Source: Psammoneis japonica
Taxonomy: Eukaryota
Direction of reading: 5' to 3'
DNA length: 64,000 bases
NCBI GenBank assembly: GCA_008632985.1
Contig: QPGO01000118.1
Coordinates: 124,001 to 188,000, forward strand
A program made the position numbers and the translations under genes. Position 1 is the first letter of the stretch. The number at the start of each line of letters is the position of its first letter. The notes under the pieces are model-generated. The model made no database searches and was not told the DNA's origin. It was given only the letters and a program-made list of their open reading frames with translations. Below are positions 1 to 61,920 of this stretch, piece by piece.

Positions 1-880
1 GACAACAGCACATTGTCAAGTTCAATGATTGGCATTTGAAGGTTGACAAGGGCCATTTGCACACAGGTCCAACACCCCCTGATGGGGGGCAGAGACACTT
101 GCAAGTGTCAGCAGGGGCAGTCAGATGCGCCACAAAATGACACTGGCAAAGTGTGGGAAAACTGCAAAATCATGAGCTGTCAAAAAAAAGATCAAACCAA
201 TGACCCACTCTCAAGAACCCCTCTCTGATGTGATGGAATTTGCATGTCAGAGGCAAATCTTGGCTCCCTCAATTTGAGTGCTTTGGGAAACATGGGTCAT
301 GTGATCATGAAAATCAAACTGCACACAAATTTGGGTGTGCATGAGTTTGCCAAATTTTGGGCACAAATTTGGACATTCCTCCCTCTGTCACTTGAGATTT
401 GGTCACAAAAACAAACCACAGCTCCCTCTTCAGCAAGCCTCCAATGACCACACAAGAGCATTGATGAACACAAAAACTGCAAGAACACCCAAGAGTGATG
501 ATGTCAGCACTGTGATGTGACTTGATGTTGACTTTGGTGCTTCAACATGTTGTGTGCTGCCACCAGCTGGTGCCCACAACTGCCACAATCTTGCCCCCCT
601 GTCTCCTGTGCTGCAAGACCTGGGGCATGTCCATCTCAGCAGTCAAGCAAAAAATTGACAGCTGGCGAAGAGAGAGCTGCAGCAGAAAAGCAGCAGTGGG
701 TGTTGCCAAGACCCCCACCACAAGTGCTTGCTTTCTCTTTGGCACAATCTCACCACTTTCTTCTTCAACAACAATGGACCCGCAAGAAGATTTTCTGTTT
801 TCATGTTCTCCATTCGCTGTTCTAAAAGATCCCTGCCGGCACAAGGTGTCATTGCGCTGCGATTCTCGCTTTTCGTTTTC
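1..880. other. TpA-depleted, TpG/CpA-rich (hypermutated) domain, runs off the window start
   Basis: Essentially no TA dinucleotide until about 823 and 888; overlapping Cys/His-rich, Tyr-free spurious ORFs. Confidence 0.85.
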
Positions 881-5566: not shown

Positions 5567-6344
5567 GGTCTTTTTTTCACGGTGTGATTTGTTTTGAATT
5601 GTGTTTTGGACAGCTGATTCTTTGTTCTCTATGACCAGACGAGTGTGGGTTCGGTTTTGTGACACGAAAGAGAACTCGCGAATTCTCGACTGTTGAGGCG
5701 TTGTTCGTTTTTTACACATCGACAAATCGGGTGCATTGATCTCTTTCTTAAGTGTTTAGTGTCGAAAGTCATCCATATTTTGTCAATGGACACTGATGAA
5801 GGAGTCACCGTGTCCTACCTGCCGGCCCTTCACCCTCGTGCCTCGTGCCGTAACCGACCTTGGACGAGCAGGAGAAGGAAAACGCACTTGCGTGGCCGTT
5901 CACGCGGTCGCCCCTCGGCCCACACAAAACAGTGGTCGCTCTGGTGGGGCAGCGACAGCAGCAACATCAAGGAAGCTCCCACCTGCAAAGGAGCTTGCAA
6001 GGTCATCATGATCAAGAAGGACCTTGGCACGATGCACTCAAACACCTTCGGTCACTTGCCGGGGCAAAAGAAAAGCTCAAAAGACCCTCATCACAACAAG
6101 GTGCTGCAACAAGAAACTTTGGCAGGGGAGGTGGGCACCACAGCGGCAAAAAGCAAGCCACAGCTCACCCCGCAAGTTTGCTGCTGTGCACTGCCCCACA
6201 GTGGACAGACAATCGCTGCAATTCAGATCCCCAGCTTTGCAAGGGTTGGCAGAAAACTTGGCTCTGAGAAAGACAGCAGGTGCGCAGAAAAGACAAGAAT
6301 GCTGGTGTGTTGTGCTTTCTCTTCACATTCTCAAGGAGGCCACG

Positions 6345-6985
6345 TGTGCCATGAGCATGCTTGGTGCACTTGCCCTTGTCATGCTCTTCTTTTCTTTGGT
6401 GCCAGCTCTGCTGGAGACCTGAACTGTTGGTTTGACATCACTTTGGTGCACGCTTTTAGCTCTTGTGGCATTCCTCTCTCACAGAGATCATCACACCCAC
6501 AACTGTGCGCTGCAGTGTGATGTGATGGTTTGTTGCAGATGATCCCTTTTGGACAACAACTGGGCATGTCTCTCAAAGATGCCACATGAATCATGAGTGC
6601 ACACAGCGCAGCTGCTCTTGTCACACTCTTCTTTCCTTTGGCACGCACAGCGCAGCTGCTCTTGTCACACTCTTCTTTCCTTTGGCACCAGCTCTGCTGG
6701 AGACCTGGATGACCATTGGTTTGATGTCCCTTCAGCGTGCACTTTTGGTTGTGGCACAGCTCTCACAGAGATTGTCGCCTGTGGCTGCAGACTGCAATGT
6801 GGCGGCAGTTTGTTGCAGGTGACACCTTTTGGACAACAACTGGACATGTCTCTCAAGGATGGTGCACAAGCCATGAGTGCACACACAATGCCCTTGCTGT
6901 TGTCATGCTCTTTTTTTTTCCTTTGGCACCAGCTCTGCTGGGGTCCTGAACCTGTGGTTTGATGCCACTTTGGTGCGAGCTTTTG
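6345..6985 (+). repeat. About 2.5 tandem copies of a ~240-bp unit with an internal ~45-bp duplication (6599-6688)
   Basis: ttgg(tg/ca)ccagctctgctgg.g.cct at about 6396, 6682 and 6923; copies differ by TG/CA swaps. Confidence 0.75.
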
Positions 6986-8338
6986 GTTGAGGGTGCATCT
7001 CTGACCGAGACTGTTGCCCACAACTGCAAGAAGCTGCAGCATGACAACAGTGTGCCTCAAGTGCTCGTCTCTCCTGCCTCTGGCTTGGAAGAATTTCTGT
7101 TTTTGGAAAATGCTCCAAAAGTGTCCATTGTGCTGCACTGCCGCTGTGACACTGTGCAACTTCCACCAACTGCCACATGCTGTGCAACTTCCACCAAATG
7201 CAGTGCCAGCCACAGTGCTCCAAACCTGCTGACGTCAAGCGACTTTTGCCAATCTCTGTGTCATTGTTGTGGCTGGATGTGAGGAACTGCTGGACAGCTC
7301 TTGCATTTTTCATGATGTGTGCAGTGCACAAAACTTTGTGACAAAATGCATCATCTGTCCTGGCACGTTTCTCTTGCAATCATGGCGTTCTCCACTTGCT
7401 CCATCTGCCGTTTTTGGTTTTTGTGTGCCATGTGCAACAACACGCTCACTGAACACAATGCCCCAACCAAAGACGAGCATTGTGCATCAACAAAATTTTC
7501 TGAAACTCCAAACAAGTCACTCGCTCAACCATTTCTCCAACTGCTTTTAATTCAAGATTGAAGATGTCCTCACCATTCAGCACCCTGCCCCCAAATTCAT
7601 TCGGCAGCTCCTGCAACTCAATGATTGTCTCAAAGAAGCCCAAACTGCCTGTTCAATCTTCGTTGCTGCTTGTCTTGCTCCACCAAAGGGATCAGAGTCA
7701 ATTCAGCATGAAGAAATTGCTGCTGCACATCAAGACATCATCTTCCCAACTGACGGAAGTGGAACTGGTGCTGCTGTCAACAATGATTGCCAACAATTTC
7801 ATCGTCAGAAGACAAACAACAGGCAATGTTTTCATTCTTGCATCAGAAGCATCAACTCAAAATGCTCATCGACCACATCACTGAAGCTCCGGCAGCCGGA
7901 GATCAAGCTGAAGCACTCTGAGATGTCATGCTTCAGCCATTGTCACAGAAAACTGTCTGCGGCTGCTGGCTGTGGTCATTTGTTTGCAAGAGCGGGGATT
8001 TCATCCCGGGTCCAAACAAGAGGATTCCAGATTGTTGTCAAGCTCTCCTCTCAAAACCTGGGATGGATGCACGGGCTGACAATGACACAACTGTGCCACA
8101 ATTTTTACATTGTTTGCAACAGCTCCATTCATTTGGTTTCAACATGACAACTCAACCATGTGCTGTGTTCTTTCTGCAGCGCAACTGATTCTGCACAGCA
8201 TGATGATGAAAAATCCTGCAGCAGATCATGCAGAACAGATTCACCTCTGTTGTTTGAACATTGGCCGACATGTGCAAAACTCCATTTTGGACAAGGATGT
8301 TTTCAAGCATGTCTGCAAGGGAGACAGAGGAGATCCCA

Positions 8339-8457
8339 GACAAGTGCTTGACAACCTCCTCAAACCTTGTGAAACATCACAACAAAAGAAGAGGTTTTGA
8401 CAAGTGCTTGACAACCTCCTCAAACCTTGTGAAACATCACAACGAAGAAGAGGTTTT
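8339..8457 (+). repeat. Near-perfect 60-bp tandem duplication
   Basis: gacaagtgcttgacaacctcctcaaaccttgtgaaacatcacaac...gaggtttt at 8339 and 8399. Confidence 0.9.
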
Positions 8458-11244
8458 GCCAGCTGATTAATCTGCAGCACCTCATGAAAAGTGGAGTCGA
8501 CAATGTTTGCATGAATGTTGTCAGTGCCTTGAAAGAGTGTGGTCTGTTGATGATTGCCAAATTTCTGCCGTTCGAGGAATGCATGGATGCAATCACTTTC
8601 AAGTTCGATGGTCAATGGGAGGACAAGAAACCAATTTTCAAGCAAGAATTTGGGTCCAGATTGAAACTTTCACAGCCTCCACCTCTGACTCATGAAAATC
8701 TCATTGTTGGAGTCCAACAACAGACTGACGACAGCTTTGGTGGCGGGCTGTTGTTTTTGGTTCAAGATTCATTGGTTTGCCGACCCTTCACTGATGTTGG
8801 TCTTGACTCACCACTTTCAATGAAGGTTGCATGTTTGCACTGCCTTGTGCCAGGCTTGGCATTCACAGCCAATGCAGATGAGTTGGACCACGTTCCATCA
8901 TTGATGAGAAGTGGAAGACTTTCTGAGGACTCCACCCCAACCAGTGAATGCTCCCCAGTCAAGGCCGGTTCCAACAATCACCGCGCTTTTTGAAAGAATT
9001 TGGATTGCTGCTTCTCCACAACATCGAAGAAATTTGTAAAAATGGGTCTGTCATTTTCTCTTGAGACAAATTCAGAGAAGAGACATGGTGCATTGACATG
9101 AAATTCCGGTCTCTGAGAGCTTCCCCAAAACATCTCCTTGCCTCCCAATGACAAGATGACGGCATCTAACTGTAAATTCACAATGCATCTCCTCATTGAC
9201 AATCAACCGCACATTGTTTGCCATTCTTCCGTTGATCTTTGTGGTGATGGTCACAGCTGACGCAACAGCAAAATGCATCACCGACACTCACAACAATCCC
9301 AAGAAAATGCCAGGAAGCATTTTTGACTTCAGAAAAGACTTGGGGGGGGGGGGGTGCCAACTGGTGCCCCAGAAGACAGATTTGGAACATGCTGATTTCA
9401 GGAGTGTTGCCAAAGTGTAGCTCCTCTGAAGTTCACCACCTTTGTTTGTGACATGCAATGATGCACTGTGTGATGGAGCCAAGACGCACTTTAGCACATC
9501 ATTGCAAAGAGACAACTGGGTTCCTGGCAGCTTGCATGGATCCAAAACAGAGAAAAACTCATTGTGGTGCACTGAATGTGCAGAAAAGAATCTGCTTGAA
9601 GAATTGTTCAAACACCTCAGATCAAAGTGATGAACAAGCACAAGGCAAGAACTGTTGGAAGGATGGAGAAGGATGAAAAACTTCCACTGGGGGGGTCATC
9701 AGTTGACTCAGAATGCTGGTGCATGACTGATGCTGGAAGGAGGGTTGTCATGACCATTGTTGGGGCAACAGACCACAAGGAAGGAACCCGCATTGGATGC
9801 TGTGATGTCACTGCTGGTGTTGGAGGAGCCAAAGTTGCTGGTTTCATTGTTGGCTCTGAGCCACCAGTGCCAGTCAGAGCCAATGATGGAGACTCATTCA
9901 TCTCTTCTAAATCCAGCACCCTTGCATTTCCTTCCCAATCATGTCATCCATGTCACGTGTGGCCCAACAACCCTTTGTGCAGTTGAATGACAATGCAAGA
10001 GCCACAGCTGCTGAGACTTGCAATCCACCCTCAACATTTTAAGTTTCCCATTCCATGCTCACCAGACAAGGAGTCACCAAGCATGATCCAGTCACAGCCA
10101 TCATGCTCTTCTTCTTCTTTTTCTTCTTGACACTCCAGCAGCTGTCAAAGTCACAGCAGCACATCACGGGATGTGAACACAGCCTCCTCCCTTTGACACT
10201 CAAGAACAACAAGGGCCTGACCCTGTCTGTCAACATTGTGGTCATCAACAGCATCCCTTTCTTTCTCATCTCATTGAATTTTTAAGTTGGTCATTTTTGA
10301 CTTCTCCTGGACTGGCGGAAGCATGTCTCCAAACACCAAGATGTGAGCTGCAGCTTGTTGCTCCTGCACTGTCACAAACAATCCAAACAAATGCTGTGAG
10401 CTCATGGGATGCACCCCATGCTCTCAATCAGCAAAAGCTGTGCAGGTGTTGCTGCCACTTCCCACACACCAGAAGCCAAGGCTTTCTTGCTTGTGAAGCC
10501 AACTGTGTGACAGAATTTGACCCCAAAAAATGTTGAAGTGAACAGCTGTTCACCAGTGGCAACAGCCCATGATCCCATTTGGAAGCTCTGCACACAAGAA
10601 AGAAACCAAAATTTGAAAAGATCAGCCCCATTGTCTCCCTTTGGTCTCCCTCTTACAGCCTGCTCAAGAGCACAATCTGTCCATCGATTTGCAGTGGGTG
10701 CCCACACACACTGGACTGGAAGGCAACAAAAGACCTCACCAACCTTTGTCGAGAACAAAAACCAATTGCAAATCAAGTCATGCTCCCGCAACACTGAAAA
10801 CCTTTCTGAAAACAAAGAGAACACAGTGCAACACGTTGCCGCCATCGCCGCTGACACTCTCACCTGTGCACCGTACAAGAGTGTTAATAAAAAATGAAAA
10901 ATAACATGTCGTGAGTCGTGAGCCAATGTGAGTGTCCGACCGTGTCTCAGCACAGTACCGGTACGGCTGTACTGTAGGGCCCTACGAAACGATGGTACGA
11001 CTATGCCACACGTAACGGTAAATCTTATGTTAGATATGCGACATTGAAGAATCAAAAATGAGTTGAATCTCGCGTGCCTGTCAATTTTTGGCGGGGAATC
11101 TCCATGATTCGATGAAACTCACATTTTGAGACGAAACCACACGAACATCGGAATGTTCCGTCCACGCTGCAACAAAAATTCTTGTGTAAGAAAAGAAGTA
11201 ACACAAAGAATTTGAAGGGAAAAAGTGGCAGAATCGCAACCAAG

Positions 11245-21199: not shown

Positions 21200-22720
21200 C
21201 GAAAAGTCGCACTTCCATTGGCAATCGCAACGCCAGCATCACTGCATGAAAAGCAGAGGAGATCTGACAGCTTGGGGCCACATCATGCAATGATTGCAGT
21301 GGAGGAATTCAAAAAGTCACACACAGTGTTATGATGGAAAGATCCACTGCTGCGGTGCTTTGCAGACATTCTGCAGACCGCATTATGTCGACACTTCATC
21401 CTTGGATGTGCGCCATTTTGTGAGTGTTTCATTTGGATGCAAAACACAATCAAGGCCTCAAAGATCCATTTCACTTGAGGAATGCCGTTCTTGTTGTGAG
21501 TCTCTGTCCTGGCAAATTTCTAAGATGTCCTTGGCACTGTGGACACTTGACCCATCAAAAAGCATGAGGCCATTCTTCCAGGGATCGGGGGTCTTTCCTG
21601 AGGATGCCAGGTGTGTCAAACACAAAGCCATCTTGAAGACGCGTTCCAGGTCTAGGTGGGACCTCGTACTACTGAACTGTGACATCGATAGTTTTTTGAA
21701 TCTCGTCGTATGTCGCGCACGTAGAATTCTACGTGATTTTTTGATATTTTGTGTCATTTTACGGTACACTTATTGAGCGATCCGTCCAAAAACTTTTGAC
21801 ATTTTTTGTTACAGCGCGATTCTATAATGTCTTAAGAATCGCGTAGGGCAGGTGCATTTGCAAAAACGTCGAGTGGTAAGAGGCATAATTGTACCACAAA
21901 CTTGGCCGTTTATTTGATGTTGAAGATAAATATATCCATTAATTAAATTCTCGTACTACGGAGCTCGCACGTAGAATTCTACGGGCCAAATGTCACACGG
22001 AGTCCCACCTAGGGCTGGAACGCGTCTGAAGAACTTTGTCTTTTGCTTTTTGCAGAGTGGACAAACAACCATCTTCAGTTGCTCCAATGATTGTGTCATG
22101 GTTTTTACCTGTTGTTCAAAGAATGACAGTGTCGCCAGATTTGAGGCAAGCAAAAGCAAACATTTTGTTGATGCAAGCACCACCCCTCTCTGCTGCTGCA
22201 ACCTCTCCTTTTCTTCACCATTCTGCTCACTTTCCTCTGCAAGCATGTCTCAACATCATGGCATTCCAGCCTGGACAGTGAACAAATGGTGTCATCAACT
22301 GGCTGCATCAAACACCTTTGAGTGTTTTCATGAGAGGGGCTGCTCCTCGGCTGGCGGGGGCACGGCACAAAGAGTCCTTCTGCCTTGTGGTGGCGGCGCC
22401 AAAGGCCGAGCAAAGAATCAACCACAGATGAGGGTCATGAGCACATCTTTGAAAACCATTTGCAACATGATCATTCTGTTCAAAAGATCTTGATTGATGC
22501 GGCTGAAGTCCAGCCTGCACCATCTGATTGCTGCGCTGCTCCTGGCGTGCAGCCGTGGCTGGGCTGGAGTTGCCCCCTGTTGCCCTGAATCAAGCTAACC
22601 CAAATCTGGCACCTGTGCAGATTGCAGATGAATCAGGAATGGGATGAATGCAAGCACAAATGTGACTTCCCACGACATCCTCAACCAATGCATGTGCATG
22701 GTGTTTTTCGATCTCGTGTT
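21200..22720. other. TpA-depleted patch interrupted by a TA-retaining MITE
   Basis: TA rare at 21200-21637 and 22030-22720 but abundant at 21638-22026. Confidence 0.75.
21638..22026. mobile_element. MITE, copy A (389 bp, 25-bp TIRs, 4-bp TSD TGAA)
   Basis: Left GACGCGTTCCAGGTCTAGGTGGGAC; right GTCCCACCTAGGGCTGGAACGCGTC (2 mismatches); TGAA at 21634-21637 and 22027-22030; second copy at 38601-38952. Confidence 0.92.
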
Positions 22721-22817
22721 GCGCAACGTAAGATTTCAACGGAAGCATGTCCAGACGTACAGTGCGGTAGATGCAGCGTAGGCAGCGGTTATGTACCTAA
22801 AAACATCTGAAATTAAC

Positions 22818-33627: not shown

Positions 33628-34517
33628 ACTTTTTCATTTTATCTTTGAGTTGTTTACTTACAAATGAAACTGTGACACCCTGGGTTCTCCTGTTGGTTGA
33701 TCGAGACAGGAAAGAATCATCTCCGTTTCTTATCCGTGTAGCTAATAGATCCTGGCTCCCTTTTGATACAAAGCCCACATTTCTTCTTGCACATTATGGA
33801 TGTCTACCAGCATTCTGTATTGTCATTGTGTAAGAGGTCAAACTCGATGAAACTATTGATTGCTCCAGCTTTGACGAACAATGAATGACTCTACCGTTTG
33901 TTACAATCAACCATAGGCCAAAAGCCGAAAGTATAACGTACCTCGCGGAATCACTCGGCAGGAGTGTCTGGAATGACGAATGGCGCGCTTGTTGTATGAG
34001 ATCTGGAGCTTGGATCCCTGGGCTCTACTTACATTTCCTCGATTTTGCAGCGACTCAATAACCGCCTCCCTTGGGTCGCTAAAATTCAACATGGCAGCAG
34101 GAGCAAGGAGCACCCTCGAGCACACGATGCAAAGTCGCGGATCCTTCATAACCCACGGTGTGTTTTCGTGCCATGTAGCAGCGAAGAAGCGTGATTTAAG
34201 TGGGATGCATGATCAACAAACATGAGTTCTAGATTCCCTGAGCACCTGTCACATTGCTTTTGCGCTTCGGCAAGTGCGTCATGATGGCTGGATGCCATCT
34301 CGCTCTCACACACAACAACTTGCTTTCTGATTCCATTTGTTCTTTTTGCGATGGAAGAGATGCTAAAACGTTCAATAAATGCAGAGCCATCACATGAAAA
34401 CATGCAGTGTCGGCAAAGAATCTGACCACCAGTGCCTTCTCACTCCTTGCCCACATGCAGCAGCTGCCGGCACCATTCACCAGACCAGCACCGTCCGCAT
34501 CATTGCACGGGTGGTCC

Positions 34518-35021
34518 TCAGGTGCCGCAGCATGAGAACTGAGAACGCTTGAAGCAGCAAGCTTTGCAGTTGCAGCCATTTGGCGCAATGGCACCGACAA
34601 AACCAGTGCACTCTTTTTTCGCCGTTGCAAGGCCAGCTCTTTTAATCTTCAAACTGTTTTGCCTTTTACGGGCATTCTCCGCATTGCAGCTCTCACAATT
34701 GATTGCACTGTTGACAGCCTCAGTGCAGCAATGGACATTGCTGCAAGATTTCAACCCAACGAATGAGTGTTGTTGAGAATGACACGAATGACCATCATTG
34801 CAACTGTGGTCATGAATCTTCATGCTGAAGAGACACCTGCATGATTCGCCGCCATTGTGTGATCTGTTGGCAACCAGCCAATTCACCTGGCCGGCACATG
34901 AACAACTGCCAGTGTCGCTGCAGTCATCTTTTTTTTCATCACTCTGCACTGTTGACAGAATCGCAAACACAAAAATCATTGCAAGAACTGTTGCAGATGG
35001 TTGATTCTGCAGCCTCCACAC
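34518..35021 (-). pseudogene. Decayed secreted Cys-repeat protein fragment (SCN...SC pattern)
   Basis: Hydrophobic leader followed by periodic SC motifs; uncertain because the mutational process itself creates Cys codons. Confidence 0.3.
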
Positions 35022-36088
35022 ATGCTGCTTGAACGAAATCGCAGCTCTTCTCTTTCACTTTGGTGTTGACAAGTCCAAAATGCGAGCCCCACCCATTGCA
35101 GCTCTTGTTGACCAAGCCACCCCCACAAAAGTCCACAACATGCCATCTCGCCATTGCAGCTGCCATTGTTCACCTTGCCATTGGCCATTCCTGAACAAGC
35201 ATCAATGTCATCACAAGAGCCTTTTCCAACTTTGGTTTGTCACATTTGCACACGAGCTCCTTGTGCTTTGCAGCTGTCATGACCAAAGAAAATTGGGCAA
35301 AACCTGCACCCATCAGCAACTCCATTGCAGGGATTCTTGGGCATCATGGCATGAGCACAAAATGCTCAGGATCCATCACAGTTGTAAAACTGTTGTGCTC
35401 AACGGCTGCACTGAGCATTCCTTTGCACACATGTTTCTCATTGCAAGACCCTGCTTGCAAAACAAGGCTCAGTGAGAGCATCATCCATCTCACCAACTGC
35501 AGCAGTGCTGGCACCAACCAACACACATGACACATGACTTTGGGAGAGCCCAAGGGAGAGCCAAAGATGACCAGCTGTGCTCCTTCTTGCTTGACCCAGC
35601 AGACTGAACCCACCAAGAGCATTCACTCTAAGTTGTGTCAAGTCAACAGATCCTTGGAGAACAGCAAAGATGCAAGAGAAACAAGACTCCACCAGTGAAA
35701 ATAGAGTCGTTCTTTCTCAAAATGACCATGCCCATCTCAAACACTTTTTTCCAGCCAGCAACCATGGATTTGACAAGCACTCGATTCAAATTTTAATCCC
35801 AAGGCCAAGTCAGCAGTGTCAGATGGAACCCAGAAAAGAGCTCCGCACAGTCATCAGTTCCCATGGCATCACTTCAACAATGCCCCACACAGGAACACCA
35901 GAAGAACAAGCAAGCCAATTGCAAGCAATCTTTGACTCAAAAGTCCATGCAGCAACACTCAAGACTTGCTTTCCTTGACAGTGTAACACCATTTCCTTGA
36001 ACAAGAAAGAGAAACATCATCACCAAAGGCACGGGGTTCCCTTCACTGTCTGAAATGCAAAACACTCACATGCACAAGATTCACATCA

Positions 36089-36632
36089 ATGGCAACTCCT
36101 CCTCCAGAACTGCCACTCAAAGAATTTCCCCACAATTGTCTGTTCAAAGTGCTTGTCATTGGCGATGCATTGAGCATCAGTTGGCAAGGCAAGCAGCAGC
36201 TGATGATCAGCTTCTGGAAAGCTCCTCTCTGTGTGAGAGAAACTGATGGCTTCTTTCTCATGTGCATTCTCAACCTTGCCATTTGTTCCTCTTCATTTTC
36301 AGCCCTCCATGTCACTCTGCAGTTCACAGATGGCATTTTTGATGAACACATTCATCCAACAATTGGTGTGGATTTCAAAGTCAAACACATCAACGTGGAT
36401 GGCAAGCATGTCAAACTTGCAATTGGGGACACACAGCCTTGCAAAAGCACTTTCGAACTCTGACATTGCCACTTTGCTGAGGCACTCATGGAGTGGCGCC
36501 AGTGTGGCTGCAATGTTTCACAAACAGGCAGCTTTAAAAATTTGGAACAATGGTTGAAAGAAGCACAACTGTGCTCTCCCAACAATGGAGAATCTGTCAT
36601 CAAACTGTTGGTGAGAAATGAAATTGATCTAG
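36089..36632 (+). pseudogene. Rab GTPase (Rab18-like) pseudogene
   Basis: LFKVLVIGD, FTDGIFDEHIHPTIGVDFKVK...KLAIGDT, SFKNLEQWLKE, VIKLLVRNEID; Tyr positions read as H/C; frameshifts; intron-like insert at about 36195-36302. Confidence 0.8.
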
Positions 36633-37000
36633 ACCACGTTCTTCTTGACACTGCTTTTCACTGGGCGTTTCATTTGCTTCTTTCTCTTGCAACCATTTGA
36701 TGATGTCATCGCAAGTGGGTGGCTCCTCTTGCCCCTTTGCATCACTCTCTTTGGCCTTGTCAAGTGAAACTTTTGCATGACTCATCTTCTCCATTTGCAC
36801 TTCTGGCAATGTGCACTGGGGTGCTTTGCCACCATTCTGTTCTTGTGGCTCTTCATTTGCTGCTTGAGCTCCCTTTTTTTGCAGCTGCTTGAAAGACATT
36901 GTGCAACACACAGCTACTAATAAGAGTTAATGTATCACGGCGACGTGTTACAGCCTTAGAAAACATGAATTCATAATGCAGCATGCATGCAGACAAAACC

Positions 37001-38471
37001 TCATTTGATGGGACATTGGGAGAATGGAAGGGAGAACCCTACCATGTCCAACTCAAGGAGGGTGTAGAACCACACCACGCTCGTCCGTATAAAGTACCTC
37101 GTGCGTACGAAGCAACGCTACGTAAAGAAGTAGAACGCCTAGTACGTATCGGTGTTCTCAAACGCGTTAACCGATCCCAATGGGCAGCTCCATCATTTAT
37201 CATACCGAAGAAAGACTTAACGGTACGCTTTATTAATGATTTGAGAGAGCTGAATAAACGGATCAAGCGATTACCTTATGCGATTCCTCATATCCAAGAT
37301 ATGCTACTTAAGCTCGAAGGCTTTATGTGGGCTACATCGCTGGATTTAAACATGGGCTATTATCATATCCGATTGGATGCTGATAGCAAGAAGCTTGCAC
37401 GCTCATCTTCCCGTGGGGCAAGTATGAGATGCAGGTATTGCCCATGGGGTTATGTAATTCGCCAGACATTTTCCAAGAACGCATGTCAGGCTTATTTGAA
37501 GATCTATCGTTCGTTCGAACGTACTTAGATGACCTTCTCGTCGTGACGAAAGGCACCTATGAAGATCACCTCAACAAACTTGAAGAAGTTTTATTGAGGG
37601 TCCAGAAAGCAGGACTAAAAGTTAAAGCAACTAAATCTCATTTCTGTCAAACCCAATTAGAATACTTGGGTTATCTGGTCAACAGAGACGGCACACGACC
37701 AATACCTAATAAAGTCGACGCCATTAAGTGAATCGCGACCCCAACCAATAAACGCGACCTAAGGTCATTTATTGGTATGGTGAACTACTACCGTGACGCG
37801 TGGATTAGACGTTCTGAAGTCTTGGCTCCGCTAACACGACTCGTAAGCGAGACTGTTAAGTGGGAGTGGACGTCCGTTGAAGACGAGGCGTTCGAAACCG
37901 TTAAACGGGTGATATCGGATGATGTTTTATTATCACATCCTGATTTTAATAAACCCTTTGAGATACATACCGATGCCTCTGAATATCAATTCGGAGCAGT
38001 GATATCCCAAGATAATAAACCTATCGCCTTTTTATAGCAGAAAGCTTAATAGTGCGCAATTAAATTATACAACAACGCAGAGAGAATTACTCGCCATTGT
38101 GGAGACGTTGAAAGAATTTCGAACGATTCTCCTGGGTCATCGTATACTTTTATTCAATGCCGAGCGCGTTATGCGCTGGCGGTTAACATGCGAAGAATAC
38201 GGTCCCGAATTACGCTATGTTAAGGGTACCCATAACCTAGTCGCTGACGCTCTTAGTCGCCTTCGGCTAGCACCCAGCTTGCCTTCCGAGGCCAATCCGG
38301 ATGTAAAAGACACTCCATCGAGTCGTCCTTTGCATGAAGCTTTTAATGCAGACGCGCAAGACGATGCATCTCTGCCTGTCAGCTTCAAGCGCATTCAAAA
38401 AGAACAACAAAAGGACAAGCACCCACTCTCACGAGCCAAGGACTCGTCCGACTGCTCCACTCGCGCGCATC
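37001..38471 (+). pseudogene. Ty3/Gypsy pol fragment (RT, RNase H, start of integrase linker), disrupted but mostly TA-intact
   Basis: SLDLNMGYYHI, LPMGLCNSP, YLDD, EYLGY, HTDASEYQ and NLVADALSR; same family as 57279-62352; frameshifts and a TGA at 37729. Confidence 0.92.
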
Positions 38472-38536
38472 GTAGCGGAGTGGTTCATCGCAACCATTGG
38501 GCAGGAGGCCAGGGGTTTGAAACCCTGAGTGGGAGT
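38472..38536 (+). promoter_or_regulatory. tRNA-like sequence with Pol III A and B boxes inside the TRIM
   Basis: A box TAGCGGAGTGG (38473); D-stem GCGG/TCGC; B box GGTTTGAAACC (38514) inside a CAGGG/CCCTG stem; anticodon region too short for a functional tRNA. Confidence 0.55.
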
Positions 38537-38600
38537 TGTCTGCAGCAACGTTGATCACTGTCGAACGCGTGAAACTCTGTGCAGTTCTGCACGTTCCTTC

Positions 38601-38952
38601 GACACGTTCCAGCCCCAGGTGCGAGCTCCGCAGTGCGAGAATTTAATCAATGGACACATTTGTCTTCAACATCAAATAAACGCCCAAGTTTGTGGTGCAA
38701 TCACGCCTCTTGCCACTCGACATTTTTGCAACTTCGCCTGCCCTGCGCGATTCTTAAGACATCATAGAATCGCGCTGTAACAAAAAATGTCAAAAGTTGT
38801 TGGACGGATCGCTCAACAAGTGCACCGTAAAATGACACAAAACATCGAAAAAATCACGTAGAAATCTACGTGCGCGACATACGACGAGACTCAAAAAACC
38901 ATCGATGCCACAGTTCAGCAGTGCGAGGTCCCACCTGGACCTGGAACGCGTC
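38601..38952. mobile_element. MITE, copy B (inverted relative to A, short internal deletion, TSD CTTC)
   Basis: Reverse complement of 21638-21971; TIRs GACACGTTCCAGCCCCAGGTG and CACCTGGACCTGGAACGCGTC; CTTC at 38597-38600 and 38953-38956; empty site visible in the TRIM paralog at about 44060-44075. Confidence 0.92.
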
Positions 38953-40359
38953 CTTCACACGCACCCACACTGTTCCGCCAAAACCGTGCAGTGTCAGCAC
39001 ACGTCAGCAAAGAGCCACATGGACGCGTGACACATGGGGAGGAGTGCAACATGCAGCCACCAGTGAGAGTCAATGTGTCACGGCGACGTGTTGCAGCCTT
39101 GGAAAATGTGAATTCACAATGCAGCATGCACGCAGACAAAAACAACCTTTTGTCTGCATGCGTGCTGCAATTGACTTGATTTTCAGAAACCTGGCCAATC
39201 TTCAATTGAGCTTCTGCTCACAGTTGCTGCTTGTCTTGCTCATGTTGTTGCTGGTGCATTCCTGGCAGCACATCAATGTGAGTGACAAGAGCACTTGCAT
39301 GTCAGCCAGTGCACCATGTTGGGGCTTGGTTTGGTGGGGTGACACCCATCTCAGCTTGCTGGCCAGGTGAAAGGTTGCTCTTGACTTTTGAACAGTGGAT
39401 GATTGGCAATGCATGCGCGGGGTTGGTTTGGTCTAATTCATTTCTGAACCCATCTGGCAACATTGTTGGATTGCACCAGAGCACTCTGATTGAAGGTTTG
39501 GCCAGGATGTTGAATGACACCAAAGCAAAGCTGGTCTTTCCACAAAGGGTCCATGCAATTCTGCCTCACCTTTGTCCATTTCTAATCCATTCAGCAAACC
39601 TCTACATTGCTGATGAACAGAGGGATTCCCATCACCAGGACAAACATGAAGTTGATCAGCGGGAACACACTGTGGAGGAAAAATGATGTCCACAACATGA
39701 TGAGAATGACTCGGAAGACACCATTGACCTTGTGGCAACGACACATGTTGAGCTTGCACAGGAGATTCATCACATCCTCTTTGTTTCTAATGAAAGAATC
39801 ATTTTCTGTGCTTTTGCATTCTTCTGGTGGGGAAGCTCCAGGCATGACATTCAAAGCTTCAGCAACAATTTTGGCAACAAATGTTGCACCAGAACTCTCT
39901 TTGTCACCCCCAGTCTGAATTTGATCTGTCAAAAGAGATGACTTGGATTTCATCCCTCACATTTTGATTGTGTCATAGATGACAAAAATCTCAAAAGGTG
40001 CTCGGCCTCAAGCATTCCCAGTTTTCCTTGTCTGCATGGCAAGGTTGAAAGTTGGAGTGATCGTGACTTGTTGGAATGCACTCAACTCTTGCATCAGGAA
40101 TGGGCCTGCACCACAGACAGTCAAATGCAAGATTGTTGAACTTCCTTTCAAAAAAGCAACTTTGGCAAGTGAGAAATCCCTTGTGAACTTTGGAGGGTCT
40201 TGCCACAAACATTCTTGTTGTCTGGATGGATTGGAAGGAAATGTTCAACCAGCCTTTGGAACTGCACCCAAGCACTCTTTCCACTTGCCAATTTCCAGTC
40301 ATGCCACACCATTGACGCAAGATGCCCACCACCAACAATGGTCTTCCCAAGCTGGCTGA

Positions 40360-42060
40360 AAGCACAAAAAGGCCGCTGTGATGAAGAATGTGCAATGACC
40401 AAAAGAACGAACACCAGCAAGAGAATTCCATTGAGAGAGCAAATCTGGTGTCCCCGCATGGAAGCAAAAATGCAGTGAAGCTCAGTGCAAATTGCTGAGA
40501 ACAGAGGGAATCCTGCAATCAAGACTTGGAATTGTTGAGATCTGCGCCATGGAACCTCTGTTGGGATTTCACGGGCAACCCCAAAATTGGCACTTGCACA
40601 GTTTTTTGCTGTGACAATTCCACCAAAGACAGTGAGGGGAAAGGTGATAAAAACAAATGGCGCAGTTGCAGCCACAATGAGCAAGCACTGGCAGATCCAT
40701 GTGCAAGCACCGCCAAATTCACCCACATGAAGACAGCAACACGTAGACCAGGGAACAAGAGTCCAGTGGCGAGGATGCACTGGACCCAATTTTGTCAGCT
40801 CATTGTTGCCCAAAGAGGCAAACCAACAATGTGTGTCCACCAACAAAGGAGGTGAGGCAGTGCAAGGCCACAACTCCAGCCAGAATTGACCCTCTTTAAG
40901 TGGCAGAGATGCGCTCAGCAAGAGCCAAACAAAGATGAAAGAATGTCATCATGTGGAGCTGGTTTCTGATTCTGACTGCAGCACAGAACAAGGTGGGATT
41001 CCAAGGGAACCTGAAAACATCACCATGGACAAGCTTCCTCCCCCTGACTCTTCTTTTTCCATGACATCATTGTCCTCAAGTTCCATGCATCAAGAGAAAA
41101 ATCATTTTTGAGAACTCCAAAAAGGACAATGGCCAAGAGTGCTGTCAAAAAAAGAACCAAGACAAAGGAGTTGATGATTGACAACCAGCGGGTCTCAAAC
41201 AAACTCAGCAAGAAGCAAGATTTGGTGCACTGGAACATTCTGTGTCTCTGAGTGAGGTTGGGCTCTTCAAACCATTTGATGGAATGTGAAAACTGAACAT
41301 GGTGTGGCTTGTCAACCTCAGTGACATCCACCAGGCAGTCCATCTGTTTGAACAGAGGGCAAGAATGTGAGCATGGGGTGCATCTCTTGTGCCCCCCAAT
41401 GACAAACATGAAGAGTTTCTTAAATCAGCCCAACACAATTTGCCTGTTGTCACACCTGATGCAAAAATGAAGGTGGGCAAAAAGAAAGGGTTTTGCTTCC
41501 TTCAATTTCTCCTGCAGTGACATCTTGATCAGCAGTGTCACCAGTGCAGCCCCACATGGGAAGATCTCCCACAAACATTTCAAAAAACCAGCTGCTTTGT
41601 GAGTTGCATCCTTCAACTTTTCCAAGTCTTTCTTTGTCAGAAGCTCCTTGCACAAAAGATGCCACTCAACACTGTTGGTGCCATGAGACACTTTGTGCAG
41701 TGAAGTCTCATGACAATTGCCAAGAATGGACTCTCCAAACCATTTTGCTCATGACATTGACTTCCCAATCACTTCTCCTTTTTGAGACCCCCACGATCTC
41801 CAGCAATTGTTGAAAGGACTGCTCAAAGCAATGCAAAGTGCAAGTGAACAAGATGGTTCCACAAATCATTGGTTCTTGTTCACAAGGTCATTTCATGCAA
41901 AGCTCTGCTGTGGCAGCACTGTGGGCAAAATCCATGCACGGCAGAAACACAACCAACTCACCTGACTTTGTTGGCGACAATGTGAACAGGGTCATGTTCT
42001 CTGCAAACCTTTTCTGCTTTGGCTCTTTTAACCTTGGCACCATCCATCAAGGCAAAGGAA
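40360..42060 (-). pseudogene. TM9SF/EMP70 (nonaspanin) pseudogene
   Basis: DPVHIVANKV (followed by a GTGAG donor), FFEMFVGDLPMWG, WLSIINSFVLVLFLT, GFPLFSAICTELHCIFASMRGHQIC (family pattern FSAIYIELYYIFAS.WGH.IY). Confidence 0.85.
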
Positions 42061-43878
42061 CAAAACAGCCGCCAAAAAAGCAAGAGTTGGTTGTGTGACA
42101 TGGTCAAAATGTTGCCATTGCACAACAAATGAGAGCACCATGTGTCTGACCATTCACATTCCTGGTTCGGGCTCACAATGGAGTCTGATGGGGCAAACTT
42201 GGTCAATGGCACATTTTTGCATGTGCGCGCTGAATGCCAGTGGTTGGATTCTTGGATTGGTTGGCGGCTGAACCAGCAAGCCAAATCCAACCCAATTTCA
42301 CAGTTTTGGGAAAGGTGGAGGGGAGCCTTTTAAACAAGAGGTTCTCATCTTTGACAAGACTGTGTGTTGTGCAGTTTGCAATGTGTGCTCTTGTCTTTGG
42401 TGCAGACGGGACATCTGGGACATGGCCACGGCAATGCTGTTGTGTAAAAAGTGTGATTCATTCCATCAATGAAATTCCCCCATTAGCTCAGTCAACTGCT
42501 GCTTGCCAACTCCTTGCCAAAAAGAAAAAGTTGCTGTCGGAATCCTCGCCCACATCACAGAAGCATCTGGCATGGTCTGTGTTCAGTCAATTTGGTCATG
42601 TGCCAGTTTTTGACAGGATTTCAGTGTGGCTGCTGTGCAAAATCCATCAACAGATTTTGACACCAACCAAAGATGTCTCCTTTTGATTGGCTTCCATTTC
42701 TGTTCTGCCATCATGAAGATGAAACTTTGTTTCATGTTGTCTCTTTTCAGAAGATGAAAAAGGAGAAAAAGGAATTGGGAACTCAAGCAGAGCCAGTGGA
42801 AGAATCCATTTTCTTGAAAAAACCAAGAAGTTGAACAAGGAGGACAAGAAGAAAAAGAAGAAATGCAAGTGCAGTTCTTTCAAGGCTCCAAAGAGCAGCA
42901 GGGCAGCAACAAGAGTGCAAAAGATCATTCCCACAAGAAGAGAAAGAAAGGAAACAGCAATGACGTCACACTGAATGATGGCTCACCTGATGCTGAATCT
43001 GAAGCACCTGTCCTTGATGGTTCAATGGTGGGTGGAATGATGGCATTGATTGACCAGACAAATGGAGCAGTTTGCTCTGCCACCAACCAGCTGGAGAGCG
43101 GCAAGTGCAAAGAAGTTGGTGTTGCACCCAAATCTGGGTCCATTGACTTGCATCTTGCTGAAGATGGTGAGTGCTCAGTTTCATTTTGTTTGCAATTGCA
43201 TGCATGGAAGACATTGGGCATTCTGCAGTTGCCCTTGATCAGTCAAATGTTGTGCCAGAGCAGTGGTTCTGCATTGTTCCTAAAATGGGATCATTGTTTT
43301 GCCAGCTGATTGGCGAGTGTGACATTTGAATCAAGTGCATCCATGGAAATGTTCTCGGCCTTTTGCACATTTTTTTGAACTGCAAATGATGACAAGAGAC
43401 CCAACTTTCCTTTTGCCACCAATGCTGATGACCACTGTGAGAGTCCTCTGCAAGCATGCCAGGATGTGTTGGCACTTCTGAAAGACTGCGTGAAAAGAAG
43501 CTCCAAATTTTGATTTGTGATCCACATTTCTGCAATGGAGCAATTGTTCAGAACCTGGGCTCTTTGGGCTTTCCCAGTGTGTGCAATTGCAAAGAAGATT
43601 GCTGCCAAATCTGGGGAAGTTCCAGGTGTCCTGCCCATGACATGCTGGCGACCAACCCACATTGCAGCGGCAACCACATGTTGAACGATTGGTTGACCAC
43701 GTGATGTTGAAATCATTCAGCAGCGAACCATGGATGTCATTGCTGCTGCACAAGGGTTGTTGCATCTCCAAGACAAAAGGAACTCAACCCTTTTACATTG
43801 TTCCTCTCACAGGAGGCATGTTTGCACACCACCACGATCTTTTCAAGAGAGCAAGAAAAGCAACATCCACAAGAAATT

Positions 43879-44265
43879 TGCAACACACAGCCACTGGTGA
43901 GAGTCAATGCATCACGGCGACGTGTTGCAGCCTTCAAATGTCACAAAGGGCGTGGCAAAAACAACCTTTTGTCTGCGTGCATGCTGCGCTGTGAATTCAC
44001 AGCGGAGTGGTTCATCGCAACCATCAGGCAGGAGTGCGCAAAACTCTGTGCAGTTCTGTGTGTTCCTTTGCACACCCACACTGTTCCGCCAAAACCGCAC
44101 AGTGTCAGTGCACGTCAGCAAAGAGCCGTGTGGACGCGTGACACATGGGGAGGAGTGCAATGCACAGCCACTGACAAGAGTTGATGCATCACAGCAACGT
44201 GTCACAGCCTTTAAATGTCACAAAGGGCGTGACAAAAACAACCTTTTGTCTGCATGCACACTGCA
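43879..44265 (+). mobile_element. TRIM-like element, copy 2 (387 bp, 110-bp terminal direct repeats, TSD AATT)
   Basis: Repeats at 43879-43988 and 44156-44265; PPT GGGGAGGAG at 44147-44155; AATT at 43875-43878 and 44266-44269. Confidence 0.85.
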
Positions 44266-44864
44266 AATTGTCCCCGTTTGCAAACATGTGGTGCTTGTGG
44301 GGAGGAACAAACCAGCAAAATCAGCAATGGTTGTCGACAATTGCTTGATGAATCACCAACCGATGTTGCAAGAAGCAAGAGTGCTCTGCATGACTTGAGG
44401 CAAAAGGGAAATTGGAAGAAGAAGCAGCCAGCAAGAGTGGAGCAAATAGAAAGAAAATTGGTCTGCGCTGGTTTCTTGAATGGTTGAGCCAGCCAGCTCT
44501 CCTCAGCAGTCAAAATTGCTGCTTGCCATTCACCAAAATGCAAATGGCATCAATTTTGATGGCAGTGCAGGGCAGGACACCTTGAATTGACAAGGGTGAG
44601 GATGAGCTGCAGTGGAAGCAGGCAAGGTTGAGAAACATGATGGGGAAGAGAAACTGCTTTCTGCAGCACAGCCGCACAAATGTTGCGCCATTGGAGAGCC
44701 ACTCATCTCACATTTTTGCTGCATGGTTTGTCATTCATCAGGATCTCCCACCTCCCTCCACCTCAACTTTGTCCATGCATGCTCCATGGTTCATGTTTCA
44801 CTGTTGCACGCGTCATTCTTCCCTCAAATTCATGTGTCAGTTGTTGAGAATGTTGATGTTTGCC

Positions 44865-45725
44865 ATGCCTTACATTGCCCCCAATGCTGACTCTTGGGGT
44901 CCACCAGATTTCATTGACAAAGCAAGTCCAAATGCTCCTTCCAGCTTGGCCAAGTTTGCTGACTTGCCCTGTGCTCCCTTTGGCCAATCTGACCACCTGG
45001 GCTGAGCTGCTGACTTTGTTTCTTCCAACCACCCTGGTCACAGTTGACAAGGAAGATGCAGCAAGGGAAAGGTCTTCAAAAAGGAAACAGAAGAAGGAGA
45101 AAAAAGTTTCCACCTGGTGGATGCTTCCAAAACTGCAACCACCAAAAGATTTGTTGTGCCTGCTGCTTGTCGGTGCCAACACACTGCTCTTTTGCATCAA
45201 GTCAGTGCTCATTGCCAGCAAACTGCTGGAAGTGCTGCTCTTTCCAAGGAGACTTTGACTCAGCAAAAGGAGGTCCCGGCAGATGTGGCAGACATGGAGG
45301 CAGTCGTGGAGGCGGTTGCAGTGGCTGTGGTGGCCGAGGAGGGCATCATGGCAACAATGACTGCACTGGTCAAAGTCCATCTGTTGTGGTGCAGCAAGAC
45401 TGGGTCAAGGTGGAGGAGTTGGATCTTGCCAAATTGACAAAGCACTTGTGCACCTCAACAGATTTTCCCATGGCTGAGTGTGTTTTGTGGTGTGGATTCT
45501 TGGATCCACACAATGACCCCAATGTCTTGAGTTGGGAGCATGTGAAATTTTCCAGTTGCTGAAGTGAGCTCTTTGCAGAGAGAACATCTGGGATGCCAAC
45601 AATCTGGGTCTGACCTTCTGCCACAATCTGGGCATTTGTTGACTTCAATGCCAGATCATTGTTGGCTCATGAGCCAAGTCTCTCCTTAAACATGACATGA
45701 GAACCAGACAAGTTCACAAGCTTCT
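44865..45725 (+). pseudogene. eIF3 subunit D 5' fragment pseudogene
   Basis: NADSWGPP...FADLPCAPFGQSDHLG, SVVVQQDWVKVEELDLAKLTK and LWCGFLDPHND match the eIF3d N-terminal blocks with Y to C/H. Confidence 0.75.
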
Positions 45726-47539
45726 AAAACCCAAATCGCTTCCCACTTTTAAGCATGGTCATTCTTTTCACACAATGGTGTCCTGCGCCCCTTCCCAGAA
45801 CGCCTCCGGTGAAGATGTCATGCTCCTTGGCTCCTGCAGAACTGATTTCATGTGATCTCCTCCTGAAGTGAGTTCTTGATCGAAGATTGTGAACTTGCGA
45901 TGCGGCCAAACACTTTCATTGATTGCCTTTGTCAGCATCGATGCTGTCAATTTCTTGCCCACCACTGGTGCATGATCCAACACAAGACATCCCTCTGTGG
46001 GAGTCACCGCTGAACTCGAATCCCCACCTGTGCACTGGAATCTGTTTAATTCCCCATGTTCATTTCTTTGTGCACTCAACAAGGCTGCCACCGCAGGACT
46101 CATGGTGACTTCATGTGACACCACACAGGTGAATCCAATTCTGTCAGTTCATCAGCAACTCTTTGTCATGTCCTTTCTCAACCTTGCTTGCCACTCGAGA
46201 AGCTGCGCTTCCTCCCTTCATTGCTCCTGTGAGAACTGTCTCCTCCATCTTTTTTGCCTTCCCAATGGCTTCCTCTCATTTGGAGCTGCTGTCCTTTCCT
46301 GTTGCTTTATGAACAGGTGAGTTGCAAAATGAGTGCACTTTGCATGTGATGTTCTCTGTTTTGTCATTGCTCGCGTGTCCTCTCTCGATTCAAACAGGTG
46401 TTTGTGTCATTTTTGAGTGCTCATTCCCAACCCCATGTTTGAATTTCTGTCAACCTTCCACTGTTTTGAATTGTGCACCTTTGCTGGCCAATCCAATGCC
46501 TCAATGAAGATTGCAATGTCATTCAAATCAATGTCAAACAACACATTTTACATTCTTGTGTCAATGCATGCATTTCAGTCCTCCAACGGCTGACAAAGCA
46601 TCTTGTTGTCACCAAGATGTGGTTGTTGTGAGTCGTTCCCATTGCAGGAACGCGCGTTCCCTCCATTGCAATGACATGCCGCCAATTGACAATCAAATGG
46701 GTTGTTTTGCTGGTGGTGGCGTGGAACCACACGGTGGTGCGGCAAGCTTTGCCTTCTTTGCCAAGGTCATTTGCAGCCCAGCTCTCCTTGTGGCCCAAAC
46801 TCGCAGCCCTTTTAATTTCCTCAACATTGGTGGTTGTGCCAGTTTTGCGATTGCCTGTTGTTTGCTTGTTCCTTCCTGCAATGCCTGCAGCATCAAGTTC
46901 CACCACCCCCATCATGATTTGGGCTCTCAGTGGTGCAATGCCATCTGGCCTAACCCTGCCGGTTGTTGTCCTGCCCTGATCAATGAGGACTTCCTCTCTG
47001 AAGATGATGCTGTGCATTGGTTGCACCATCAGAACAACTTAAAAGATTTTCTTCAACAACCACAATGGGCGAATGCTTTTTGACAACAACGCAGCACAGA
47101 ACCAACTTGAGGAGATGCTGTCCAATGAGTGTCCTGAAGGCACTGTCATCATTTCACTGGACGTGATGTTTTGTGTGTGTGCCCACAAATGGAGGCACGA
47201 AGCATTCTTTGTTCCTGCCTGTCCAGACGATCTGTCTCATGGGGAGGTGGTGTTGACAGGCACCTGCTTCACAAGCACACCAAGAAAAGAGATGGTGCCA
47301 TGGAGCCAAGGCATTCCACTGGGAACGACCTGGGGACTGACATCAAACAAAAATTCAAGCCTGCCAAAAGTGGGTGACTTGGCACTTTCCCTTTTTTTTT
47401 TTAAAGGCAACTTTCTTCCATGCAAGCAATGCATTGTGTCAATCAGCCATTTGCACAAACTTGCTTTTTGCCTTTGCCAACTTGCTGCTTGGCCAGTTTT
47501 GCATTCCAACAACCACTTGTTCACACGCTTGCTGTGTCA

Positions 47540-48712: not shown

Positions 48713-48852
48713 TGACACACCTGTCTGTCAACAGATCAATTTGGCATCACTTTTTTGTTGTCACACACATCTGTCATCAGAACAATTTGGCACCACTTTT
48801 TCATTGACACACCCATCTGTCAACAGATCAATTTGGTGTCACTTTTTTGTTG
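48713..48852 (+). repeat. Three tandem copies of a ~46-bp unit
   Basis: tgacacacc(tg/ca)tctgtcaacagatcaatttgg(ca/tg)tcacttttttgt. Confidence 0.85.
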
Positions 48853-61813: not shown

Positions 61814-61920
61814 CCCGCTTCTTCATGGTCGTTTTGAGATTTGTCGGTCCTGCCAACATTTCGTAGTTTCGTTTCTGTAGATTTCGTCACCTCGCACAAC
61901 ATGCGGGAGCAATGTTGCTG

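Follow-up and report, generated by a model that had tools for sequence, protein, structure and literature searches.

The window analyzed here, 64,000 nucleotides of contig QPGO01000118.1 of Psammoneis japonica (positions 124,001 to 188,000), is diatom nuclear DNA in which tracts almost devoid of the dinucleotide TA alternate with DNA of normal composition, and our subject is these TA-erased domains and the contexts of the few TAs that remain in them. A two-state hidden Markov model (HMM) on TA density, used beside per-kb dinucleotide odds, assigns 30,706 of the 64,000 bases (48%) to six erased domains, in which the observed/expected ratio (o/e) is 0.04-0.10 for TA, 0.09-0.61 for CG and about 1.5-2.0 for CA and for TG. 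Normal DNA in the window has a TA o/e of ~0.57 and a CG o/e of ~0.9-1.0; 1358 TAs lie within it and 114 within the erased domains, which are the following:

1..822: TA-erased domain from the HMM, with 0 TA, truncated by the window start
5852..10873: TA-erased domain with 13 TA, TA o/e 0.04 and CG o/e 0.29, the region singled out in an initial annotation of this DNA
22011..22728: small TA-erased island with 2 TA
34231..36914: TA-erased domain with 11 TA and a Ras-like fragment at 35987-36460
38881..57341: TA-erased domain of 18.5 kb with 70 TA, TA o/e 0.06 and CG o/e 0.35
61002..64000: TA-poor stretch in two parts, 61002-62354 being the 5' part of a long terminal repeat (LTR) element, partly edited and with CpG intact, and 62355-64000 an old domain in which TA and CpG are both lost

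The boundaries of the domains are abrupt, spanning 35 bp at most. At the left edge of the 5852-10873 domain TAs spaced ~30 bp apart end at 5851 and the next follows at 6457; at its right edge no TA follows the one at 10654 until 10874. The extent given in the initial annotation, 5860..10870, agrees with the HMM domain to within 8 bases. The same pentamer lies at either end:

5848..5852, plus strand: CCGTA at the left edge of the domain, edge TA intact
10871..10875, plus strand: CCGTA at the right edge of the domain, edge TA intact

This pair may represent a target-site duplication, the probability of a chance match being ~1 in 64. CpG is dense for ~100 bp inside the left edge (5855-5953) and ~40 bp inside the right edge (10834-10872), so that the CpG-depleted core is slightly narrower than the TA-erased tract. 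The domain also contains tandem repeats at 6329-6990 (a unit of ~240-290 bp in ~2.5 copies, 73-85% identical) and at 8339-8461 (a 60-bp unit present twice, 95-98% identical). Comparison of the window with itself found no terminal repeats of this domain, and 22 of its open reading frames (ORFs) had no Pfam match at E <= 0.01, in a scan to which 100 of the 155 stop-to-stop ORFs of at least 90 aa overlapping the erased domains were submitted; a search of the Atlas with ORF 7551-8144 gave noise-level matches only (score 0.80).

The same self-comparison recovered 15 repeat pairs, three of which join a TA-rich with a TA-poor copy and serve as proxies for the ancestral sequence:

57278..57710, minus strand: 3' LTR of the LTR element, essentially unedited, with 23 TA in 369 aligned bases
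61920..62354, minus strand: 5' LTR of the element (57278-62354), edited, 17 of its 23 TAs now being CA (8) or TG (9)
37004..38480, plus strand: unedited reverse transcriptase (RT) paralog with TA o/e ~0.9, lying between two erased domains, used as ancestral proxy
58953..60509, minus strand: RT/RNase H ORF of the LTR element, 518 aa, still open, ~75% TA-edited
21634..21970, plus strand: unedited copy of a 337-bp repeat (pair P3), from the self-comparison
38619..38957, minus strand: edited copy of the 337-bp repeat (pair P3), with 18 of 27 TAs now CA or TG and 1 of 23 CpGs changed

A TA has become CA or TG in the edited copy at 17 of 23 sites of the LTR pair, 74 of 98 of the RT pair and 18 of 27 of the 337-bp pair (109 of 148 in total), and the reverse arrangement, with TA in the TA-poor copy facing CA or TG in the other, is seen at 0, 6 and 0 sites, respectively. 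Both strands are hit equally, TG and CA outcomes standing at 9:8, 37:37 and 11:7. Changes at ancestral TAs amount to 110 transitions versus 2 transversions; the remaining differences comprise 18 CpG transitions and a small symmetric background; G:C to A:T transitions outside CpG number 14 in the edited direction, which is background-like. Strand-coordinated bursts were not detected, either in runs tests (z = 0.07, +2.1 and -0.8) or in the dispersion of CA versus TG, which is not larger in edited than in normal DNA.

The RT itself supports TA as the ancestral state. At codons where the two copies differ by TA versus CA or TG, a comparison with 64 distant RT loci came out for the TA-rich copy 21 times and for the edited copy 4 times (5 ties), while the control set of other differing RT codons splits 15:14. 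Fifteen Tyr codons of the unedited paralog read Cys or His in the edited RT; the outgroups overwhelmingly show Tyr at positions 171, 198, 220, 253, 341, 342 and 428, and favour His at 108, 114 and 303. Two TAG stops of the unedited copy are TGG in the edited one. A comparable signature is found in a dead host-like gene of the 18.5-kb domain:

40308..42044, minus strand: EMP70/TM9SF pseudogene, with diatom homolog P0122

None of the 19 Tyr of P0122 is kept in this pseudogene (8 are Cys and 3 His), and Phe is kept at 23 of 34 positions. As the LTRs of an element are identical at insertion, the difference between the two LTRs points to a change at the level of DNA that followed insertion. Comparison of the element's flanks, AGGAA vs AGAGA, did not confirm a target-site duplication. 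At three sites CA in one LTR faces TG in its counterpart (57284-57320 vs 61926-61962), a pattern that independent hits on opposite strands of an ancestral TA (or CG) would produce, and similar swaps occur in contigs of run X1 at 51254-5, 54803-4 and 60538-9.

The dependence of these changes on flanking bases was analyzed at 144 ancestral TA sites from the three pairs. With R and Y denoting purine and pyrimidine, TA was kept at 1 of 37 RTAY, 17 of 70 mixed and 18 of 37 YTAR sites. The individual contexts range from CTAA/TTAG (7/12 kept), TTAA (9/18), GTAA/TTAC (4/10), CTAC/GTAG (6/18) and CTAG (2/7) to ATAA/TTAT (6/30), ATAG/CTAT (1/12), ATAC/GTAT (1/16), ATAT (0/10) and GTAC (0/11). At mixed sites 36 edits fell on the strand with Y at +1 and 17 on its partner, which ties the preference to the neighbour of the mutated pair itself and not to a symmetric 4-bp site. 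In a competing-risk maximum-likelihood model that gave each pair its own time (n = 144), a pronounced effect is seen for the +1 base (likelihood ratio, LR, 28.1, p = 3.5e-6; relative rates of 1 for A, 3.2 for C, 0.96 for G and 2.8 for T), an additional one for the +2 base (LR 23.2, p = 3.7e-5; A 1, C 4.6, G 4.5, T 3.2) and a weak one for the -2 base (p = 0.015). The A in 5'-T-A-Y thus changed ~3-4 times faster than that in T-A-R, with A at +2 slowing the change a further 3-4.6 fold. It follows that RTAY vanishes first and that YTAR within runs of T and A (TTTAAA-like) survives longest; the fit also reproduces the impression, recorded in the initial annotation, that surviving TAs lie in TTTA and TAAA. 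Taken together, the pairs show that TA is changed at the level of DNA, on both strands alike and almost only by transition, with a preference centred on the trinucleotide T-A-Y.

These data bear on the idea that repeat transcripts were edited as RNA by an ADAR-like enzyme and returned to DNA by reverse transcription. The preference of ADAR at -1 follows the order T > A > C > G, the very order observed here, and ADAR favours G at +1; here G at +1 is among the least favoured bases (0.96 against 3.2 for C and 2.8 for T). Editing of RNA is further contradicted by the difference between two LTRs of one element, and it sits poorly with the equal and interleaved TG and CA outcomes and with the erasure of pseudogenes and of a stretch that is single-copy in run X1. 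We consider this route very improbable.

The flank rule is mirrored in the TAs that survive in the erased domains. The initial annotation had noticed that surviving TAs lie mostly in TTAA, TTTA, TAAA, TTAG or CTAA, and these five classes indeed cover 79 of the 114 residual TAs as opposed to 328 of the 1358 unedited ones (Fisher p = 5e-22), including 11 of the 13 in the 5852-10873 domain and 68 of the 101 in the other erased domains (p = 2e-18). All seven TAs it cited as examples are real, though displaced by 1-3 bases; they lie at 7548, 8468, 10040, 10283, 34643, 35794 and 36535, and each is a TTAA. Among the 114 residual TAs, TTAA occurs 31 times (~8 expected) and RTAY (ATAT, GTAC, ATAC/GTAT) twice (~30 expected), and T is found at +1 in 2 of 114 compared to 370 of 1358 in normal DNA. 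Sorted by flank class, the erased domains hold 2 RTAY, 47 mixed and 65 YTAR sites, and unedited DNA 388, 692 and 278. Survivors in old domains have T at -2 in 59% and A at +2 in 48% of cases. Simple arithmetic on the flank-class counts gives -ln(survival) in old domains as 1.4 for YTAR and 5.2 for RTAY, a rate ratio similar to that fitted to the paralog pairs. Survival is therefore clearly flank-dependent, in old domains and paralog pairs alike, and the earlier view that flanks matter and constrain the mechanism holds, even if the contexts are better summarized as RTAY fast and YTAR slow, the target being the A of 5'-T-A-Y.

A uniform survival of TAs with normal-like contexts is rejected (chi2 141, 9 degrees of freedom, df). 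It could also be argued that the residual TAs are new mutations or chance occurrences whose contexts say nothing of editing, given that old domains are rich in CA and TG, from which one transition gives TA. However, the contexts expected of TAs newly made from NCAN/NTGN by transition, or made by transversion, are likewise rejected (chi2 113 and 159, df 9), and the same ranking of contexts recurs where the ancestral TA is known, in the pairs and in the metagenome family described below; we find this explanation barely credible.

A query with the RT protein retrieved 80 metagenome loci, which provide a replication outside the window. Seven of the 16 loci with 50-67% amino-acid identity are TA-poor, with TA o/e 0.10-0.25 (L002, L003, L004, L007, L015, L016 and L046), and almost all of those at 25-36% identity have a TA o/e of at least 0.74. 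Seven of the retrieved loci make up one transposable element (TE) family, 85-92% identical in nucleotides, whose members differ in TA loss, and TA, CA and TG stand together in many alignment columns. At 67 inferred ancestral TAs of this family the kept fraction is 0.22 for RTAY, 0.51 for mixed and 0.70 for YTAR sites (Kruskal-Wallis p = 2.5e-6), and the Y-side strand was edited 35 times versus 19. Among the residual TAs of six TA-poor loci, 2 of 117 are RTAY and 67 of 117 YTAR; in 63 distant loci these classes make up 27% and 24% of the TAs. TTAA as such is not enriched in the six TA-poor loci, which indicates that the general rule concerns purine and pyrimidine flanks and not TTAA.

Loss of TA is accompanied by CpG decay. 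CpG was lost at 5 of 29 sites in the LTR pair (now TG or CA in the 5' LTR), 12 of 97 in the RT pair and 1 of 23 in the 337-bp pair, with 18 losses in the edited copies versus 4 in their partners. Arithmetic from the pairs puts the ratio of the rates of TA and CpG loss at ~7. The LTR element is a mosaic in this respect: TA o/e falls from ~1.0-1.25 in the part up to ~58750 to 0.2-0.4 in the remainder, which ends at 62354, while CpG o/e is ~1 in both parts, and a ~70% loss of TA at such a CpG o/e means that TA loss is much faster than CpG decay. The step at ~58.75 kb, from unedited to ~70% edited, suggests editing in tracts or recombination between copies. In the pairs TA editing was unrelated to the distance from CpG (p = 0.77) or from lost CpGs (p = 0.29), in a test of low power as CpGs lie a median of 6 bp away. 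Three further close relatives of the RT from the metagenome (L005, L010 and L013) have CpG o/e 0.08-0.14 and TA o/e 0.45-0.76; these would be CpG-methylating hosts without marked TA erasure, so that the two processes can occur apart.

The co-occurrence of TA loss and CpG decay in the same domains, and the higher CpG losses of edited copies (18 vs 4), would be natural if a T:G-mismatch glycosylase of the TDG/MBD4 kind acted on methylated DNA, removing T opposite a misincorporated G at TpA, or T in a normal TpA, with repair then fixing C. For human TDG, TpG/T is the next most acceptable context behind CpG/T. Nevertheless, TA loss runs ~7 times ahead of CpG loss and is already ~70% complete at a CpG o/e of ~1, and the scheme would have to be fed continually with T:G mispairs arising at TpA in particular. 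We consider the glycosylase improbable.

The bases other than T at -1 provide a further test. In the three pairs, A-to-G changes per available A number 110 of 294 after T, 15 of 328 after A, 6 of 251 after C and 3 of 286 after G, an excess of T over A of at least 8:1. The initial annotation held that the A:T to G:C changes outside TA fall mostly at AA. In the pairs 15 of 24 do so, 11 of these 15 with Y at +1; AA differs from GA at p = 0.014, and 15 AA changes stand against 5 reverse ones at 5' A (p = 0.04). The excess is nonetheless weak and was not replicated in the metagenome TE family, with 7 of 143 at AA, 6 of 137 at GA and 9 of 99 at CA, and we regard it as suggestive only.

A secondary AA signal had been linked to a scheme in which T:G mismatches arising by deamination of 5-methylcytosine recruit a non-canonical mismatch repair, with gap filling by a polymerase resembling DNA polymerase eta (pol eta) that errs at WA. 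The A-to-G changes with T at -1, the possible weak AA excess (15/328 vs 3/286) and the CpG depletion of the domains are in keeping with it, as is the A-to-G change at TA more than at AA in somatic hypermutation by this polymerase. The error rates of 1e-1 to 1e-2 at template TW given in PMC6423074 imply that the observed rates of TA loss are not beyond pol eta. The same source assigns a quarter of pol-eta errors in vitro to C/G, and a mixed spectrum would accordingly be expected; yet only 2 of 112 TA changes are transversions and non-CpG G:C pairs hardly change at all. The diatom changes further depart from somatic hypermutation in their stronger specificity for T and in the role of the 3' flank, a strong +1 and +2 dependence being unexpected where misinsertion is set by the primer end. 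With T over A at -1 at 8:1 or more, the AA excess unreplicated and no link to CpG distance (p = 0.77 in the low-power test), we attach little probability to pol eta, less than to the glycosylase.

Much of the right-hand part of the window is repetitive. Contigs of run X1 that match 44001-64000 with at least 80% likeness number 10,087, of which 1,807 are at least 99% alike; they vary at 1706 places by transition (A>G 437, T>C 438, C>T 401, G>A 430) and at 422 by transversion (38-68 of each type). The segment from 45335 to ~62676, including most of the 38881-57341 domain beyond its first part, is thereby recognized as mostly repeat DNA with many diverged copies. On the other hand, 44237-45613 is matched by one identical contig at single-copy depth and is TA-poor all the same, and an RT fragment of an abundant family (36915-38880) is unedited although nested between erased domains, which seems to argue against simple copy counting of the kind seen in repeat-induced point mutation (RIP). 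Dead host-like genes, with similarity to EMP70, Ras, 2-oxoglutarate (2OG) oxygenases and a C2H2 finger, are also found in the erased domains, the 18.5-kb one among them. As editing removes TAA and TAG and cannot create stops, only TGA stops are left there, and most of the 155 long stop-to-stop ORFs overlapping these domains are certainly spurious.

TA-normal ORFs of the window encode a purple acid phosphatase, a galactokinase, a metacaspase and a leucine-rich repeat (LRR) protein (16 ORFs scanned, 6 without match). The best relatives of the galactokinase are at most 64% identical, their named sources being pennate and other diatoms. At 22818-22936 on the plus strand, 90 bp to the right of the erased island at 22011-22728, there is a gene for 5S rRNA (Rfam RF00001, 92.7 bits). 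ORF 23634-24959 (plus strand) has a sub-threshold match to the histone-methyltransferase Tudor domain PF18359 (E 4.5e-5, 23.6 bits vs a cutoff of 31) and could encode a chromatin reader; no evidence ties this ORF to the editing.

We interpret the residual TAs as the probable footprint of a TpA-specific A:T to G:C hypermutation of DNA, for which a deaminase of the TadA/ADAT type is, tentatively, the most likely agent. Such hypermutation would strike silenced repeat and pseudogene DNA and spare the neighbouring genes. The agent would be an enzyme that works on single bases and recognizes the neighbour on either side. Its most likely identity is that of a TadA/ADAT-like polynucleotide adenine deaminase which acts on the DNA of marked chromatin, the resulting inosine being copied as G. 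What suggests a deaminase of this kind is the obligatory T at -1 together with the fast T-A-C context. TadA editors prefer YAC. TadA/ADAT enzymes and the base editors derived from TadA convert A to I, read as G, and require U or T at -1. According to the account in PMC10027721, the bacterial editing motif is UACG and fungal mRNA editing needs U at -1; the former fits the fast T-A-C. The natural substrates of these enzymes, in contrast, are RNA loops.

Several observations weigh against this interpretation. The match to the UACG motif is only partial, since +1 favours C and T alike and +2 shows no preference for G, and fungal ADAT-type mRNA editing is described in PMC10027721 as preferring A or G at +1, the opposite of the preference here. 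No enzyme was seen, the deaminase being a candidate drawn from the sequence of the window. The half-site model underpredicts the survival of mixed sites (by arithmetic ~11 expected and 17 seen), the ancestral proxies are three pairs from one window, and the two LTRs are likely, with the target-site duplication unconfirmed, to be those of one element. Finally, a modified thymine would fit the sequence data equally well: the A in T-A-Y is the T in R-T-A on the opposite strand, and the sequence by itself reads alike for a deaminase and for a modified base.

The latter alternative supposes that thymine (or adenine) at TpA is modified in heterochromatin, for instance to 5-hydroxymethyluracil (5hmU) or 5-formyluracil (5fU) by an oxygenase of the TET/JBP type, and mispairs with G, giving T-to-C at 5'-R-T-A. 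Pure transitions, strand symmetry and a trinucleotide-centred flank rule are all compatible with it; moreover, dinoflagellates carry 5hmU preferentially at TpA and TpC, and 5-formyluracil forms mispairs with G. On the other hand, 5hmU itself is only weakly mutagenic, a TA loss of at least 94% would require a very efficient mispairing lesion, and general literature searches, which were the extent of the inquiry, gave no sign of such a base in diatoms. We consider a modified base unlikely. As to the three mechanisms offered by the initial annotation, patch repair by pol eta fits poorly, whereas an adenine deaminase and a mutagenic modified base are both compatible with the data.

The closest parallel is the chlorarachniophyte Bigelowiella natans, in whose mutation-accumulation lines A>G/T>C changes were found only at TpA, and for which an ADAT2-like enzyme was proposed in the main text of a preprint (Mettrop et al., April 2026, bioRxiv 10.64898/2026.01.13.699255). 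As presented there, TpA becomes TpG or CpA on either strand, the targets are bounded foreign or selfish DNA (integrated giant-virus and virophage DNA), long-term depletion of TpA goes with a gain of CpA plus TpG, and an ADAT/TadA-like DNA deaminase is suggested. The features of TpA hypermutation present in the diatom are the near-exclusive A>G/T>C change, the T before A, and the confinement to bounded selfish DNA with genes spared, and on this basis the diatom process matches the Bigelowiella type. A further mark of that type is de novo mutation that is still ongoing, at ~1000-fold the background rate. The differences lie in the host, a lineage of another supergroup, in the targets, which in the diatom are transposons and dead host-like genes, and in the extent of erasure, the viral region having a TA o/e of 0.45 and the diatom domains being far deeper, at 0.02-0.10, and showing concurrent CpG decay. 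The words "flank", "context", "trinucleotide", "CpG" and "diatom" do not occur in the preprint's main text (10.64898/2026.01.13.699255). What is added here is the flank rule together with its replication, as well as the polarity test and the intermediate stages. A literature search of a limited collection found no report of TA erasure in diatoms.

RIP of ascomycetes resembles the diatom process as a mutational genome defence with transitions at one dinucleotide, on both strands and in sharply bounded tracts. However, RIP converts CpA to TpA and creates stops, while in the diatom TpA is what disappears, and stops and Tyr codons are lost with it; in place of the excess of TpA typical of RIP, TpA is lost, and outgroups polarize TA as ancestral 21:4. 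Unedited members within a many-copy family also suggest that duplication alone is not the trigger.

Demonstration of TpA-only hypermutation has hitherto been confined to a single preprint on a single alga; the diatom case is far more advanced, with intermediate stages preserved, and makes it a comparative problem. For annotation the consequence is that long ORFs in erased domains are mostly spurious and that pseudogenes read as Cys/His-rich, Tyr-free proteins. The flank rule already disfavours one of the three mechanisms proposed for this DNA, and furnishes a quantitative fingerprint against which candidate enzymes could be assayed in vitro (T-A-Y vs T-A-R oligonucleotides) and by which one could check whether Bigelowiella uses the same enzyme. 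It is conceivable, though on balance doubtful, that diatoms and chlorarachniophytes share an enzyme-driven "reverse RIP", in which a chromatin-targeted editor turns the A of T-A-Y to G in silenced DNA. If so, this process would wipe out Tyr codons, TATA-like and AATAAA-like signals and TAA and TAG stops without ever making new stops, its T-A-Y/R-T-A fingerprint would offer a handle to identify the enzyme across lineages of the stramenopiles, alveolates and Rhizaria (SAR), and that enzyme may be a natural DNA adenine deaminase acting in a double-strand context, of direct relevance to base editing.

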